From IMG/VR virus record IMGVR_UViG_3300030095_005826, positions 1 to 36,333 of that record: a stretch of DNA of 36,333 bases; one strand, given 5' to 3'. The notes beneath the pieces are model-generated. The model made no database searches and was not told where the DNA came from. It saw nothing but the letters and a program-made list of their open reading frames with translations. The translations under genes and the position numbers were made by a program. This document shows, piece after piece, positions 15,259 through 34,562 of the stretch. The stretch comes from a virus (Duplodnaviria; Caudoviricetes). Numbering within the stretch: position 1 is the first letter of the stretch; each line of letters starts with the position of its first letter.

Positions 15259-17475
15259 TTACTTTAATATTTTTGATAAACTACCTTGGTTATTATATTT
15301 TTTAAATTCAAACTCTAATTTCTTTTTTGTTTTTACTACAGCGGGTGCATACATATTTTTATTACATGCCATAATTGCAAGCCCTGAACTTATTGCTGCA
15401 TCAAACTTTGTTCTTTTATTTATATCAAACAAAGCCCAATCATTTAATGTACGATCAAAATATAAATCACCATAATTGTTATCTTCTTTTAATCCTACAT
15501 GTTTGTCTATATATGATTCTATAGCTGCCGCGTGTGCTTGTCTAATATCTTCTGAGGAATTTGGTATACCTCCTACTTCTTTTTCTGTAACTGATAATTT
15601 ATTATAATTTTTATCAGGTCTATTCATTGAATATCCTCTATAGCCTCTTCTTTTTAAATAATACAAAAGTCTTGGCTTATTGTTTTCTGCTAATAACGGC
15701 ATTCCATAAAATACTAATGCCATTAATACATCTTCAAAAAACATTTCCGCTGTTGGCGGCCTTGATACATATTCAAGAAAAAAACTATTAGAAGGGGCTT
15801 CGTCTAAGCTAAACTTAGTCAATCCATGTAAAGCTCCTTTAGATCCTTGACCATCTGTCGTTCCGGATATATCGTAACTATCACATCCAAAAGCCCCTAA
15901 GTGTTCATTACCAGGATGCTTTCTTCCACTTCTATTAATTACAATGTTTTGCATATGTACAGGTGGTATCCAAGAAATATTAAATCTTCCTTTTAAGTCT
16001 GGCATAAAAATAACTTTGCTATCTTTTATTCCATTTTCCCATTGAAAGTTTCCTTTTGATACAAACCCAGATCCTTTTAAATCTCCATTGTAATCTATTT
16101 GTTCGTATATCTTTTGTAAATTAAATATACTATTTTTTGTTTCGTCTCTAAACGCATGTTCTTCAGTACGCGGGAATTGACGATAAAATTCATTTAATGC
16201 GTCTTGGTCGCCTTTAAGACCATCTGCTTCGTTTTGCCAATGTTCAATAACTCCTGTTCCAATTGTTTCTCCATAATTGTCGCGAGCGCTAGTATCTCCA
16301 GATTCAAAGACAGGCATTCCGCAATCGTCGATAAATCCTTCGTAGTTCCATTCCATAGGTATGAATAAGCTATATAATCCAGAGCTTGTTTGTCCATTCC
16401 TGTTTCGTTTAGTAACGTCTGAAGCATAATATAATTTTTTAAAGTTATCACCACCCTTATCCAGTGAATTTGATGTTGATCCCATCATACACTTTCCTAT
16501 TATCCTACTTCCTAATCTTAGGGTTGTTTTTGTTACTCGCCAGTTATTTAATATATTATCTGGTCTTTCCCATTTACCAGATTCATCATGCACTAATAGT
16601 TTTAACTTTTCACCATCATAAGAGTTATCTCCTGTATTCTTCCAATCTATTGTTGTATCGAGCCCTTCGAGCGCCTCGGGCTTAGCGGAGCCAGTTGCAC
16701 TGATGGATTTCCTTGTGAGCTTGGAGGCTGGTACCCTGAAGGCGAGCTCGGTCTTGGGACGGTCCATTCCGTCTTGTATTGGTTTGAAGAAAAAGGGGTA
16801 GTGTACTGATATGGGTACCACCTTGTCGGTAAACATCTTCTTTGCATCTGCACCACTCTTCGATAAGATTCCGAATCTAGAATCTGACGATATTGTGGCT
16901 TGGTTAACCGTCTCAGCACTTGACATGAATGAAAATCCGGAACGCCTATTTTTAAGGTAGCAAATTCCATAGCATCTTTGATCTGCCTTGCATGCCTCCC
17001 AGAATATGAAGAATAATCTGTTTGCTTCTCGAAAGTCTGGCTTCCCAACATCAATTTTGGACCACTGCAAGTACATATAATGAGTGCCAGTAATATAAGT
17101 GCTACAACCTTTGTTGCGAAACCAATAGCCTTCTTCCCTCCTGGTAAATTCTCTATCAATGTATGCATACCACTTTTCTTTTAATTCTTCTGGATAATTT
17201 CTCCAATCAAATATTGTTTTTAGTCTTCTAAGCTCTTCTGGGTAATCATGCGCAATCCATTTATCATCTATGCTATACACATCTTTTTCAACAGGTAAAG
17301 CAATTTTTAAATTTTGTATTTCATATACTTCACCTATTTTACCTGTTCTGCTAATAACAACTACATCATGTTCTTCATTATATCCATACTCCCACTTCTT
17401 GCCTTTATTCAATCTACTAATAGTAGTTTTTTTAATAGGCTCAATAATTTTGTATAATGTTTGTTGATACGCCAT
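15259..17475 (-). CDS. terL: Terminase large subunit
   Basis: 738 aa; Walker A-like KNRRSGFS, Walker B LLVHDESGK, motif MGST, nuclease motifs FGCDSYD and FDAAISSGLA. Confidence 0.9.
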   Translation of the reverse strand: MAYQQTLYKIIEPIKKTTISRLNKGKKWEYGYNEEHDVVVISRTGKIGEVYEIQNLKIALPVEKDVYSIDDKWIAHDYPEELRRLKTIFDWRNYPEELKEKWYAYIDREFTRREEGYWFRNKGCSTYITGTHYMYLQWSKIDVGKPDFREANRLFFIFWEACKADQRCYGICYLKNRRSGFSFMSSAETVNQATISSDSRFGILSKSGADAKKMFTDKVVPISVHYPFFFKPIQDGMDRPKTELAFRVPASKLTRKSISATGSAKPEALEGLDTTIDWKNTGDNSYDGEKLKLLVHDESGKWERPDNILNNWRVTKTTLRLGSRIIGKCMMGSTSNSLDKGGDNFKKLYYASDVTKRNRNGQTSSGLYSLFIPMEWNYEGFIDDCGMPVFESGDTSARDNYGETIGTGVIEHWQNEADGLKGDQDALNEFYRQFPRTEEHAFRDETKNSIFNLQKIYEQIDYNGDLKGSGFVSKGNFQWENGIKDSKVIFMPDLKGRFNISWIPPVHMQNIVINRSGRKHPGNEHLGAFGCDSYDISGTTDGQGSKGALHGLTKFSLDEAPSNSFFLEYVSRPPTAEMFFEDVLMALVFYGMPLLAENNKPRLLYYLKRRGYRGYSMNRPDKNYNKLSVTEKEVGGIPNSSEDIRQAHAAAIESYIDKHVGLKEDNNYGDLYFDRTLNDWALFDINKRTKFDAAISSGLAIMACNKNMYAPAVVKTKKKLEFEFKKYNNQGSLSKILK
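16194..16454 (-). CDS. Candidate overprinted (+1 frame) ORF inside terL, up to 86 aa
   Basis: Same alternative frame as 16647-17168; locally raised GC (26/60 at 16261-16320). Confidence 0.4.
   Translation of the reverse strand: MVITLKNYIMLQTLLNETGMDKQALDYIAYSYLWNGTTKDLSTIAECLSLNLEILALATIMEKQLEQELLNIGKTKQMVLKATKTH
16647..17168 (-). CDS. Candidate overprinted (+1 frame) lipoprotein/membrane protein inside terL, 173 aa
   Basis: 173 stop-free codons in the +1 frame; signal-like KK...KVVALILLALIICTC-SGPK; Pro/Ser-rich tail; GC 32/60 at 16681-16740 vs 13/60 at 17281-17340. Confidence 0.6.
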   Translation of the reverse strand: MHTLIENLPGGKKAIGFATKVVALILLALIICTCSGPKLMLGSQTFEKQTDYSSYSGRHARQIKDAMEFATLKIGVPDFHSCQVLRRLTKPQYRQILDSESYRRVVQMQRRCLPTRWYPYQYTTPFSSNQYKTEWTVPRPSSPSGYQPPSSQGNPSVQLAPLSPRRSKGSIQQ

Positions 17476-17747
17476 TACTTAGATTTTTTTTCTGCAAACC
17501 CTGAAAACGTATTTTCTTTTGTTTGCTTTGGTTTATTTTCAAGTAAACTTTTTTCTGCTTCTATTCTATTTAATATTTCAAAAGCATCAAATATTGCAAG
17601 TTTCTTGGTAGCAGCAGCGTTCTTTAATCTATCAGCTGAAACATCATCATCAGTTTCAACAATAGCTTCTTTTGCTACTTTGACCAATTCGTCAACAGCT
17701 TTATAGCCAGCTTGGATTATATTCTCTTTCTTCTTTTTTATATCCAT
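17475..17747 (-). CDS. Probable terminase small subunit
   Basis: 90-aa helical ORF whose stop overlaps the terL start; call based on position. Confidence 0.55.
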   Translation of the reverse strand: MDIKKKKENIIQAGYKAVDELVKVAKEAIVETDDDVSADRLKNAAATKKLAIFDAFEILNRIEAEKSLLENKPKQTKENTFSGFAEKKSK

Positions 17748-18288
17748 AACGTATAGATATTTCGTTGTTTATTACTCTATATAGTCTTTCGCCTTCTATT
17801 ACAAATTCATATTCACTATCTGGAGTAAATCCTATTTTTTCATTAACCTTAAAGTTATTCGTATTATCTACGTACTTAATAATACCTGTTAATGAGATTT
17901 CTTTATTAATTGAAAACTTATCATTGTTTAGTAAAGGTTTTACGAAACTAAATCCTTGATTCGCTTTCCATATGCCATCACGCTTGTAAAGAAATATTTG
18001 CTCAAGTTCGCAGAAGTATAAATTATTTTTAAAATAACTTTTACTATTGCGCTCAATACCTCTAACGTCATGCCAACGACGAAATATATTGTGATGCACA
18101 TAAAGAACATCACCTCTGTTAATATGTGTATCACGTGCTATAGGTGTTTCATAAACTATTGCTTCACGACTTACAAACTTGTGATCAGATATATCGGTGT
18201 TTAATATCAACTCCTTATCTCCAACTGTTTTTGTATTGTCGTATCTTTCTTTTTTAGGTTTTATTAAAAAGGAATAAATAGGTTTCAT
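17701..18288 (-). CDS. Tandem GroES-like (double co-chaperonin fold) protein
   Basis: Two GroES-like halves: MKPIYSFLIKP...INRGDVLYVHH and KANQGFSFVKP...GIIKY...VNEKIGF...EFVIEGERLYRVINNEI. Confidence 0.6.
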   Translation of the reverse strand: MKPIYSFLIKPKKERYDNTKTVGDKELILNTDISDHKFVSREAIVYETPIARDTHINRGDVLYVHHNIFRRWHDVRGIERNSKSYFKNNLYFCELEQIFLYKRDGIWKANQGFSFVKPLLNNDKFSINKEISLTGIIKYVDNTNNFKVNEKIGFTPDSEYEFVIEGERLYRVINNEISIRYGYKKEEREYNPSWL

Positions 18289-29802: not shown

Positions 29803-30261
29803 TTATTTGTTTTGTATTGTTTTGAACTTCTCAGCACCACGCGATCCAAAATATGCTACGTATACTGTAATAAGAAGTGATTTTAAAAGATCAACCCAGC
29901 CACCGTCAACTTCAAAGTCTAAACCGGTTGAGTCTATAAATATTAATAAGACCATTGAAATAGTTAAGAAAACTAATGTTAATGGCCTTGTGTTTTTTGA
30001 AAGCCAGGAATCAGATTTCATATCTGCCTGCCATCTTTTTGATACCTCTTGCATTTCAACAGTATCTTGATGCAGCAAAGCTAATGCTTTTTCCTTGTCT
30101 TCAGCTGGTAGTTCAGGATCTTTTTTAATTAAATTTTTAACTAAGCCAAGTACACCTTTATCTGGTAAAACTTCACCGAGACTACCGATTATATTAGATC
30201 CAGCACCGGCTAAAAATTTACCAACGGCTGTATCTTTTAATTTTTTTTTACTTTTTGACAT
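29803..30261 (-). CDS. Holin (GTA 3TM holin-like)
   Basis: RWQADMKSDSWLSKNTRP, two hydrophobic helices, AYFGSRGAEK motif. Confidence 0.7.
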   Translation of the reverse strand: MSKSKKKLKDTAVGKFLAGAGSNIIGSLGEVLPDKGVLGLVKNLIKKDPELPAEDKEKALALLHQDTVEMQEVSKRWQADMKSDSWLSKNTRPLTLVFLTISMVLLIFIDSTGLDFEVDGGWVDLLKSLLITVYVAYFGSRGAEKFKTIQNK

Positions 30262-30697: not shown

Positions 30698-31012
30698 TTA
30701 ATTGTTTCTGTCTACAAGCTCTTGAATGTCTTCAACCCTTGCTTCTATTTTCATACTTAACCCCGCTTCTATCCTAGCAACTGGCTTACCGTTTCTAAAA
30801 ATAATTATTACTGGAACAGATTTAATACTGTTTTTTAAATCTTCACCTTGTTCTTCAACAAATGCTTTTGAAACACTAGCTCTTTTAATAGATTTAAGTT
30901 TTGAATAATCATTTTTTTGATTCCATTTGTAATTAAAATGTATAACTGAAACGTCTTGTGAATATATAGAAAAAGTTAGTAATAAAAGTAGAGTAGTAAT
31001 AAATTTTTTCAT
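30698..31012 (-). CDS. Secreted thioredoxin-fold protein lacking CxxC
   Basis: Signal peptide MKKFITTLLLLLTFSIYS-Q; VIHFNYKWN and IKSVPVIIIFRNGKPVARI; no cysteines. Confidence 0.65.
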   Translation of the reverse strand: MKKFITTLLLLLTFSIYSQDVSVIHFNYKWNQKNDYSKLKSIKRASVSKAFVEEQGEDLKNSIKSVPVIIIFRNGKPVARIEAGLSMKIEARVEDIQELVDRNN

Positions 31013-31013
31013 G

Positions 31014-31304
31014 TTAATTTTTAATTATTTCATACAACTTATTGTCAATATCCTCAAGCTTCTTACCGTTTTCCTCAACTTTTTCCTGTGTATTAATTAT
31101 TGTTTCACGAATTAATTGATCTTTTAGGTCATATTCAGTTCTTGAAACTGGTGGCTCAGGCAACTCTTTAGCGAGTTGTATATCTGCTTGCAAAGAATAC
31201 CACATACCAACTACTGTTACAACCACAGCACCAATTGTTATGAGTGTTTCTACGCTAACGTTAAATTTAGATTTTTTTATTTTGTCTATATCTAATTCGC
31301 TCAT
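31014..31304 (-). CDS. Single-TM coiled-coil protein (lysis-cluster associated)
   Basis: LITIGAVVVTVVGMWYSL followed by coiled coil. Confidence 0.7.
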   Translation of the reverse strand: MSELDIDKIKKSKFNVSVETLITIGAVVVTVVGMWYSLQADIQLAKELPEPPVSRTEYDLKDQLIRETIINTQEKVEENGKKLEDIDNKLYEIIKN

Positions 31305-32755: not shown

Positions 32756-33013
32756 TTAACCGACTAAAACAACATCTTGCTGCTTTATAACCTGATATAA
32801 GTTATCGTCGTATTCTATTCCGTGCCCAGCTCTTCTATCGTAATATACAGTGTCGTTTTCTTTTATACCCTCTGTAAAATTACCCGCAGATATTACTTTA
32901 CCTTTTAAATATCTAATGTCATCTACGTGCTGGTCCATTATAAGAAGCCCTTTTTCTTCTTTAGGTTCTTCTTTTATAGCTTCTATTATTATGTAATTAT
33001 TAATTGCCTTCAT
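32756..33013 (-). CDS. groES: Co-chaperonin GroES (cpn10)
   Basis: MKAINNYIII...KGLLI...GKVISAG...IKENDTVYY...VIKQQDVVLV; directly after groEL; likely start 33013. Confidence 0.85.
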   Translation of the reverse strand: MKAINNYIIIEAIKEEPKEEKGLLIMDQHVDDIRYLKGKVISAGNFTEGIKENDTVYYDRRAGHGIEYDDNLYQVIKQQDVVLVG

Positions 33014-34562
33014 ATGTTCTGACATTTGATATTACACAATCAGCTGATAATATTGTTGTTGCTACGCTTACCGCATTTATCAATGCTGTTTTAGTAACTA
33101 ATACTGGATCTATTATTCCGTGTTTTACCATATCTACTATTTTTCCTGTAGTTACGTCAACACCGTTTCCTTCATCTGCGTATGGCCCATAATTAATACC
33201 TGCATTTTCAAGTATTTTTTTATATGGCGCTTTTATAGCCTCGCAGAGAATTTTTTCTGCAGAGTTTTTGTTTTTAAGTTTCGCAGAAGCATTATGCAGT
33301 GCAACACCACCACCTGCTACAATACCTTCTTTGATTGCAGCTTTTACGGCATATATGGCATCTTCAACTCTATCTTTCTTTTCTTTCAATTCTATTTTAG
33401 AGTTTGCACCGACTTTTAATATTGCAACAGCTCCTGAAAGCATTGCAAGTCTTTGTTCAAGCTTTTGTTTTATAAAAGCGTTCTTTTCGCTTTTTATTTT
33501 TTTATTGACTAGATCTATTCTTTCTTTTGCTTCTTCCGGCATTTCGCCTACAGTTATTACTGTTGAAGTTACATCTGTAACTGCTTTTACAGCTTCACCT
33601 AAAACATCAGGGTTTATTAAATCTAAATCATCACCTAGCTCTTCATTAATAACTTGCGCTCCGGTTATTGTCGCTAAGTCTTGCATAGTGTCCATTTTAG
33701 TTGCTCCAAAACCAGGTGTATCAATAATATTAATTTTTATATTACCTTTTACCTTATTCATAAGCAGAGCTGACATAGGCTGTTGATCCATCTGTGCAAC
33801 TATTAATAAGCTACGTTTTTCTTTTATAACGTGTTCTAATACGTTTTGTATTTTACGTATACTTGGAATAGCTGATGCTACTATAAGGACGTACGGGTTT
33901 TCGAGTATGGCTTTATTTTTTTCACTATCTGTTACAAGATGTTGTGATTTAATTCCACAATCGAATTGTACCCCGTCAACTATTTCACTGAATGTTTCTT
34001 CTGTGTCAGATTCTTCCATCAATACGACACCGTGTTCACCTACCGATTTATATGCGTCGGCTATTGTCGATCCCAACGTTCTGTCGTTGTTGCATGATAT
34101 GGAAGCAACATCTTCCAGCATTTCGCCCTTTATATCTATACTTTTGCTATTCAAGTATTTTAATACTTTCTCCAGGCCACTCGACACCGCTGATTTTATC
34201 TCTCTTATTGAGTAATCTTCTGTTGCATCATTCATTTCCTGGAGGAGAGAATGGGCGAGGACGGTTGCTGTGGTGGTACCATCCCCTGCCTCTCTCACAG
34301 TTTTTTTGGCTGCTTCTTTTATTAGTGTTGCACCTATATTTTCCACCGGGTCCATAAGTACTACTGATTCCGCGACTGTAACACCGTCTTTTGTAATTAC
34401 GGGTTTACCCATTGCATCTTCATATATAACACACTTTCCTGAAGCGCCTAGAGTAGATTCAACTGCATGCGCTAGTTTATCTACACCTTTCATAACCTTA
34501 CCTCTGGCATTTACTCCAAAAGTAAGATCTTTTACTATCTCACTCGGGTTATTGAATTCCAT
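33000..34562 (-). CDS. groEL: Chaperonin GroEL (cpn60)
   Basis: ITKDGVTVA, AGDGTTTATVLA, KEKKDRVEDA, EGIVAGGGVAL, GIIDPVLVTKTAL motifs; no GGM tail. Confidence 0.97.
   Translation of the reverse strand: MEFNNPSEIVKDLTFGVNARGKVMKGVDKLAHAVESTLGASGKCVIYEDAMGKPVITKDGVTVAESVVLMDPVENIGATLIKEAAKKTVREAGDGTTTATVLAHSLLQEMNDATEDYSIREIKSAVSSGLEKVLKYLNSKSIDIKGEMLEDVASISCNNDRTLGSTIADAYKSVGEHGVVLMEESDTEETFSEIVDGVQFDCGIKSQHLVTDSEKNKAILENPYVLIVASAIPSIRKIQNVLEHVIKEKRSLLIVAQMDQQPMSALLMNKVKGNIKINIIDTPGFGATKMDTMQDLATITGAQVINEELGDDLDLINPDVLGEAVKAVTDVTSTVITVGEMPEEAKERIDLVNKKIKSEKNAFIKQKLEQRLAMLSGAVAILKVGANSKIELKEKKDRVEDAIYAVKAAIKEGIVAGGGVALHNASAKLKNKNSAEKILCEAIKAPYKKILENAGINYGPYADEGNGVDVTTGKIVDMVKHGIIDPVLVTKTALINAVSVATTILSADCVISNVRTYEGN
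34239..34300 (-). other. Long RNA hairpin embedded in groEL coding sequence
   Basis: GAGAGA/UCUCUC plus GGC(A)GGGGAUGGU/ACCGUCCUCGCC around a 12-nt loop; GC 37/60 at 34241-34300. Confidence 0.55.

Follow-up and report, generated by a model that had tools for sequence, protein, structure and literature searches.

A probable lipoprotein gene overprinted on the terminase large subunit gene of marine phages, and its near-exclusive distribution with a lysis-cassette lipoprotein

Llp of phage T5 and Cor of phage N15 are receptor-blocking lipoproteins encoded by small stand-alone genes. The gene studied here is predicted to encode a lipoprotein and lies, in the +1 frame, inside terL, the terminase large subunit gene of a virus of the Caudoviricetes, in a stretch of 36,333 nucleotides (IMG/VR record IMGVR_UViG_3300030095_005826, positions 1 to 36,333; "the window" below is this whole stretch). 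As for Llp and Cor, a place at the outer membrane's inner face is predicted for its product, a probable lipoprotein, but the nested gene is longer and overprinted, and its product is predicted to be disordered. It also resembles Rz1 of lambda as described in the main text of a survey of spanins (Kongari et al. 2018, PMC6139136): a predicted lipoprotein overprinted in a +1 frame, with an unstructured proline-rich mature part, extra cysteine and a place in a late operon. It differs from Rz1 in lying within terL and not within the gene of an inner-membrane spanin (i-spanin), in its non-canonical lipobox, in having only a candidate partner, and in the length of its mature part, which is 108–185 residues across the family and 40 in lambda Rz1. 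Because the gene is embedded in terL and not in an i-spanin gene, it lacks the gene arrangement of outer-membrane spanins (o-spanins), and we do not file it as a member of that group.

The word "terminase" has no occurrence in the main text of that survey. The same text describes PseT.2 of T4, a separated o-spanin whose gene likewise lies apart from holin and endolysin; it adjoins its own i-spanin gene, whereas the candidate partner in the window is 13.5 kb away. ORFs nested in the terminase large subunit gene are described in T7-like phages (19.2 and 19.3; PMC4925675); they encode 41–56 amino acids (aa) and are given no function in the table of that paper, whereas the products here have 150–225 aa and a selected export signal, and occur in unrelated phages. 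Unimolecular spanins (u-spanins), which the text of PMC8776804 annotates in the flavophages Ingeline and Nekkels, also offer a comparison: the nested product shares an N-terminal lipoprotein signal with T1 gp11, but was rejected as a u-spanin because it has no C-terminal membrane segment (highest 17-residue Kyte–Doolittle (KD) hydropathy 1.33). A literature search, with most subscription papers outside its scope, listed no report of this nested gene.

A reading frame kept open within terL

In the window, terL runs on the minus strand from 17475 to 15259 and encodes 738 aa (phrog_6681, E 1e-163). The nested open reading frame (ORF; P0001) runs on the same strand from 17168 to 16647, ATG to TAG, encodes 173 aa and is the +1 frame of terL codons 103–276. 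It spans the motif KNRRSG (terL 175–180), which we take to be Walker A. These coordinates, the frame and the length bear out a preliminary description, made from the letters of the window, of a long +1 ORF across this motif. The features that it listed for the product are also present: a basic n-region (KK..K; residues 1–20 from the ATG at terL codon 103, with K12, K13 and K20; 17109–17168), a hydrophobic h-region VVALILLALII (residues 21–31; 17076–17108), which is the sole confident helix in an AlphaFold2 model, and the sequence CTC-SGPK, with C32-T33-C34-S-G-P at 17058–17075 and C34, the predicted lipidated cysteine, at 17069–17067. The mature part (16650–17057) is hydrophilic, net positive and predicted to be disordered, without a second membrane segment; it contains two more cysteines, and its tail is rich in serine, glutamine and proline. 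The nested protein matched no family in Pfam or PHROG.

The codons of terL change where the two frames overlap. GC content at third codon positions (GC3) is 0.48 within the nested ORF and 0.20 outside it (83/173 vs 114/564, p 4e-12). It rises from 0.40 in terL codons 103–199 to 0.58 in codons 200–275, peaks within the mature part at 16877–16650, and is ~0.2 again past the ORF stop; the shift to GC-ending codons, strongest towards the 3' end, had been rightly described. The terL protein and its codon usage lead one to expect 8.7 stops in the +1 frame, and none is present (probability of none 5.7e-7). In the codon-shuffle null model proposed with the preliminary description, none of 2000 synonymous shuffles attained the observed run of 177 codons (the longest reached 145). 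The smallest +1 p among 13 other genes of the window was 0.04.

We then scored relatives over terL codons 107–243, a range picked once the distribution of stops was known. Of 81 IMG/VR sequences, the window among them, 46 are stop-free over this range where 0.03 would be expected (2 of the 46 start within it); of 50 contigs taken from GTDB-derived genome bins, 32 are stop-free where 0.016 would be expected. Among the 129 terL sequences that span the full range, 76 are open (~0.05 expected), five are interrupted by a single stop, and the other 48 by at least two. Beyond codon 300, outside the region, the observed +1 stops match those expected. The frame is closed in all seven contigs below 65% terL identity and in all seven named outgroups, and the latter indicates that the nested gene is younger than terL. 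On unrooted trees built from terL minus the overlap, we count 9 switches between open and closed for 81 rows (quick IQ-TREE) and 14 for 128 rows (FastTree), and the nested gene is dispensable in a large clade of 22 sequences. The simplest history on these trees would be that the frame arose once and was then lost several times.

In a profile search, 223 database homologues of the nested protein were retrieved, with the box in 116 of 120 among the matches listed. A few database homologues are chimeras of terL and the +1 frame; their junctions lie at varied places, and we read them as assembly errors and not as programmed frameshifts. Contigs from RNA libraries cover parts of terL at mixed identity; they share the terL mRNA and show neither strand nor frame. 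Three features by which an overprinted gene is recognised are present, namely a frame open beyond chance, a distribution over a subset of the range of terL, and selection on the product, and the nested frame is almost certainly a real overprinted gene.

Selection on the start codon, signal and tail

The selection was studied by comparing 61 open with 39 closed sequences, after removal of near-copies (6 open, 6 closed) and with partial sequences left out. In the +1 frame, the wobble base of a terL codon is the middle base of a nested codon. Hence, the choice among synonymous terL codons sets the hydrophobicity of the nested protein. The h-region of the window has a KD of 3.7 against a null of 1.3±0.9, and across relatives the hydropathy of this region is pushed up (2.21 vs 0.71). 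The nested hydrophobicity is thus far above the +1 default, and the caveat of the preliminary description that +1 frames tend to be hydrophobic does not explain it.

The start codon is conserved along with the frame. Of the open sequences 68 of 76, and of the closed ones 14 of 48, have an ATG at codons 103–109; most open frames that lack it use codon 122, and an in-frame ATG is found at codons 95–125 in 74 of the 76, and the remaining two have TTG. The signal residues are enriched in the open set (p 1e-8 to 1e-13, values that ignore relatedness): Leu129 in 59/61 open vs 12/39 closed, Leu131 in 58 vs 17, Thr135 (T33) in 58/61 vs 13/39, and Cys136 (C34) in 57/61 vs 17/39. The same is seen just after the cysteine, with Pro139 (37/61 vs 0/39), Gly144 (48 vs 2) and Ser155 (52 vs 10). 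The first cysteine, C32, is forced by terL Met134; where this methionine has changed (L070, L408–L410, L412) the first cysteine is lost and the second kept. In two divergent open sequences (L171 and L186) the usual box is lost, and a hydrophobic stretch ending in TGSC lies ~14 codons upstream; a third, L187, which has ambiguous bases, shows TGLC at the same upstream place. The start codon, the hydrophobic helix and the second cysteine are therefore under selection in open lineages, which supports the N-terminus resembling a signal peptide and the cysteine of the preliminary description. The nested product is very likely exported and membrane-anchored, and its sequence makes it a probable lipoprotein.

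The tail is 108–185 residues long across relatives, net positive, and free of a second membrane segment (KD maximum 1.33). Its hydropathy is pushed down, e.g., to -0.3 vs 1.32 at codons 190–199. Most of the conservation lies within the first ~20 mature residues (Pro139, Gly144, Ser155), and the rest is variable. AlphaFold2 with a 59-row alignment gave a mean predicted local distance difference test score (pLDDT) of 50.5, confident only for the helix at residues 11–34. The tail is selected for composition more than for sequence. The mature part has two periplasmic cysteines in the window and a median of three in relatives; one is forced by terL Met214. Lipoproteins exported to the surface of Bacteroidetes carry acidic signals after the cysteine, K-(D/E)2 or SDDFE, in the text of PMC5080379. 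No such acidic signal was found here: the net charge of positions +2 to +12 is +1 in 51/61 open sequences and negative in 1/61. The nested product is therefore predicted to face the periplasm. Serine occupies position +2 in 48/61 open sequences.

Lipoproteins and candidate partners in the lysis region

A second lipoprotein, encoded by a stand-alone gene, was first met in a closed genome (147 aa, rich in proline and tyrosine) and is found at 23 virus loci; the family includes L232:13-453 (minus strand) and L285–L307. It has a lipobox FASC, VSSC or LAGC and a hydrophilic basic tail of ~125 residues, and directly adjoins an M15 endolysin or a gene for a transmembrane/coiled-coil protein in 19 of the 23 loci. 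It has no Pfam or PHROG match; its Atlas clusters are viral and unnamed, and the largest, with 1017 members, has no common Pfam family. From this analysis we regard it as a putative lysis lipoprotein. The nested and stand-alone proteins are not homologous (hhalign probability 0.3%) and have a common layout, an anchor followed by a long basic hydrophilic tail.

The nested frame tends to decay where the stand-alone lipoprotein is present, and the two have a near-exclusive distribution. Nineteen of the 23 stand-alone records include terL, and the nested frame is broken in 18 of them. With two further carriers (L170 and L032) it is broken in 19 of 21, two records having identical terL, against a background of 75 open and 51 broken (p 2e-5, kinship ignored). 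The two open carriers end early, at codons 244 and 258, and have a GC3 shift of 0.05–0.06 where the median is 0.25; some carriers keep remnants of the nested signal (L311). On the terL tree, the stand-alone gene changes 10 times. Apart from the decayed L032, it is absent from every one of 11 further open genomes in which an endolysin is visible. When records were sampled by means of the transmembrane/coiled-coil gene, 10 of the 56 searched (of 80 loci) had a scorable terL; in nine the frame is open and the 5-kb flanks contain no lipoprotein, and in one it is closed and a lipoprotein is present.

Strict complementarity of the nested frame with any lysis lipoprotein was ruled out by two close complete relatives (G061 and G063), together with closed genomes that have none. 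In these two relatives an 81-aa lipoprotein gene overlaps the end of the M15 endolysin gene (L426, G061 46725–46970; L430, G063 44317–44562). The earlier remark that the lysis cluster has no obvious lipoprotein finds no support as worded, since the window is partial and does not include the endolysin region, which in G061 and G063 holds this gene.

The candidate inner-membrane partner is a 96-aa protein with a single transmembrane segment and a predicted coiled coil (31014–31304, minus strand), of a family that sits beside endolysin, holin and stand-alone lipoprotein in lysis cassettes. It is possibly the partner of the nested lipoprotein. A complex prediction for the mature part with this protein scored 0.00 and was counted neither for nor against. 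Another gene of the window, for a 94-aa transmembrane protein, was rejected as a constant partner because it is too sporadic among relatives. The holin gene of the window lies at 29803–30261 on the minus strand (phrog_3427, E 1e-19).

The transmembrane/coiled-coil gene is part of a module in the lysis region, being followed by a gene (30698–31012) whose product, read from its sequence, is a secreted protein that resembles thioredoxin but is without CXXC. The module is seen in L248, L260 and L285–L307 and in unrelated phages of 34–37 kb, often with a secreted protein of ~390 aa, maybe an outer-membrane barrel. It is possibly an undescribed envelope-spanning system. Genes resembling u-spanins, with the signal of a lipoprotein and, at the C-terminus, a membrane segment, lie right after the endolysin in three closed lineages (L193, 3982–4491; L195/L196, L195:2920-3402; L207, 760–1248).

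Four outgroups have anchor-type proteins near the endolysin. Three proteins near the endolysin in outgroups combine an anchor with a non-canonical cysteine motif: gp32 of elemo (LLQFC-EGPRK; L082:18189-18734), gp84 of phi38:1 (LFTEC; L086:8271-8870) and a protein of the Manatee Spring genome (LQRAC; L081:15491-16114). They have a middle rich in threonine, aspartate and valine and a C-terminus that resembles beta strands, and are candidate reversed u-spanins of cultured phages. No hidden Markov model match to these anchor-plus-beta proteins was found inside the clade.

Proposed function, rival explanations and phage context

The near-exclusive distribution with a lysis-cassette lipoprotein makes it likely that the nested gene helps the phage to leave its host. 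We see about an even chance that its product does the job of the stand-alone lysis lipoprotein, likely an o-spanin-like step at the outer membrane; true membership of the two-component spanins is doubtful. The o-spanin candidacy raised in the preliminary description is supported in part, by this distribution, with a partner and function that are putative. In the proposed mechanism, the nested frame would be translated off the late terL mRNA by internal initiation, and its product exported by Sec, lipidated at Cys34 and cleaved. The serine at +2 and the lack of an acidic export signal would place it at the outer membrane, on its inner face. Holin and endolysin would act first, after which the tail of ~140 residues would reach the inner-membrane partner, possibly the 31014–31304 protein, and the two together may help to rupture or fuse the membranes. 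A wider scenario, which we put forward tentatively, is that a lysis lipoprotein arose de novo in the terminase ATPase gene across a large clade of marine phages of Flavobacteriia, had its lipobox rebuilt at a second site, and was swapped ~10 times for the unrelated stand-alone lipoprotein. On this view both proteins would serve as the outer-membrane half in a Bacteroidetes spanin system that is so far undescribed, and nothing but the anchor and the tail's length and composition would count.

A number of observations weigh against this proposal. The window box, ICTC, departs by its threonine at -1 from the consensus [LVI][ASTVI][GAS]C in the text of PMC6139136, as the preliminary description had cautioned of a non-canonical lipobox, and its Cys32 is forced by terL. 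The C-terminus is variable, ending between codons 244 and 325. In 9 independent pairs, the association held when "broken or shift under 0.08" was scored (median p 0.031; 5.6 pairs the same and 0 opposite), with the 0.08 threshold set post hoc and the stand-alone gene coded absent in many partial contigs, and it was not significant for strictly broken frames (4.4 vs 0.5, p 0.125). One sequence (L056) is open with no codon shift and no stand-alone gene, G061 and G063 combine a strongly shifted open frame with their endolysin-side lipoprotein, and three near-complete closed genomes (G001:C28, G003:C66, G004:C21) have no late lipoprotein by our own heuristic, with which lipoprotein signals in long relatives were scanned. 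The transmembrane/coiled-coil gene is not confined to open genomes, since closed ones and unrelated phages carry it too, and 60 of its 80 loci have no anchor-plus-cysteine match nearby. Finally, periplasmic cysteines, which 507 of 528 two-component spanins possess according to the text of PMC6139136, are absent from the stand-alone lipoprotein and from the aligned transmembrane/coiled-coil proteins.

It is highly improbable that there is no protein at all and that the open frame is a by-product of RNA structure, a DNA element or a local codon bias of terL. In favour of this reading, translation of the nested frame is predicted only, the +2 frame of the window is also open over 64 codons (p 0.001), and a nucleotide-conserved element does occur downstream, at terL codons 346–392. 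The inverted repeats that the preliminary description had offered as possible RNA structure do exist, but they are not conserved: the arms TGGTACCC/GGGTACCA occur together in the window alone among 61 open sequences, and the pair GACGG/CCGTC in 11 of 61. Alifold gave no consensus structure, Rfam gave no match, and synonymous identity over codons 166–285 is lower in open (0.37–0.47) than in closed sequences (0.46–0.56). Moreover, selection runs in opposite directions by part, towards T in the h-region and C in the tail, as a +1 protein requires, and the start codons turn over among codons 103, 107, 108 and 122. Granting a real protein, its helix might instead be an uncleaved inner-membrane anchor and its tail periplasmic, the protein acting in the manner of an i-spanin or an antiholin, or in exclusion. 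This would suit the threonine at -1, non-canonical yet strongly selected (58/61), and the outgroup proteins with a similar anchor, cysteine and beta-strand ends, whose layout would need an inner-membrane N-terminus; the canonical lipoprotein of G061 and G063 could then be the partner. We consider it quite unlikely, as the relocated signal of L171 and L186 ends in a canonical TGSC, the alternation is with a canonical lipoprotein, the h-region has 11 residues, and the deviant lipobox AWAC works in spanins in the text of PMC6139136.

The signal evidence fits equally a late lipoprotein that blocks a phage receptor or envelope machine from the periplasm, for superinfection exclusion or protection of progeny as with T5 Llp and N15 Cor. 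Frequent loss (14 tree changes) and co-occurrence with a second lysis lipoprotein in G061 and G063 suit such an accessory role, as does the concentration of conservation in the first ~20 mature residues. However, the gene that alternates with the nested frame lies inside the lysis cassette, and receptor blockers are generally small and folded, whereas the nested tail lacks a confidently predicted fold and is under selection for composition more than for sequence; this explanation is unlikely. An exported lipoprotein with another late function, e.g., loading host Lol or stress pathways, with an alternation due in part to shared ancestry, would agree with the strict pairs test, the poorly conserved tail and the dispensability of the gene in the clade of 22. 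It is improbable given that the stand-alone gene sits at ~10 places of the tree and never together with an intact shifted frame among 21 records.

A second constrained stretch of terL lies at 16300–16440 of the window (codons 346–392), within a +1 ORF running from 16454 to 16194. Synonymous differences to a 94%-identical relative number 2/43 there and ~0.2 elsewhere, and a +1 stop at codon 382 occurs in 6 of 123 sequences where 79 are expected. Its nucleotide pattern is present in 42/61 open and 5/39 closed sequences and is kept in 17 of the 21 carriers of the stand-alone lipoprotein. Alifold gave a weak structure without covariation, and Rfam no match. The stretch could be a second short +1 peptide (~40–60 aa) or a DNA or RNA element.

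The window (36.3 kb) carries terL, portal, structural protein, holin and GroES-like genes. Its terL product is 45% identical to that of Elemovirus, 40% to Maribacter phage Panino, 32–38% to Pachyviridae, 37% to Pervagoviridae and 62% to the uncultured Manatee Spring genome. All the named relatives infect Flavobacteriia, and we infer a host in this class. Near-identical DNA of the window terL is found in marine DNA runs of at least four studies. GroEL-like and GroES-like genes lie at 33000–34562 and 32756–33025, and a second GroES-like gene (17701–18288, phrog_13932) lies upstream of the packaging genes, as in cultured relatives. Many contigs of the group (L147–L209) sit in unrelated bins, of archaea, Clostridium, Aliivibrio and others, and bin labels are therefore not evidence of the host.

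The nested lipoprotein is a candidate for the opening of the outer membrane in abundant marine phages of Flavobacteriia that have no annotated spanin, and searches for spanins restricted to lysis cassettes can miss candidates inside packaging genes. The analysis also points to an unnamed family of lysis-cassette lipoproteins. More broadly, the locus offers a well-supported example of a gene that arose by overprinting a conserved enzyme domain, and its birth, the relocation of its signal, its decay and its apparent replacement can all be followed in natural sequences.

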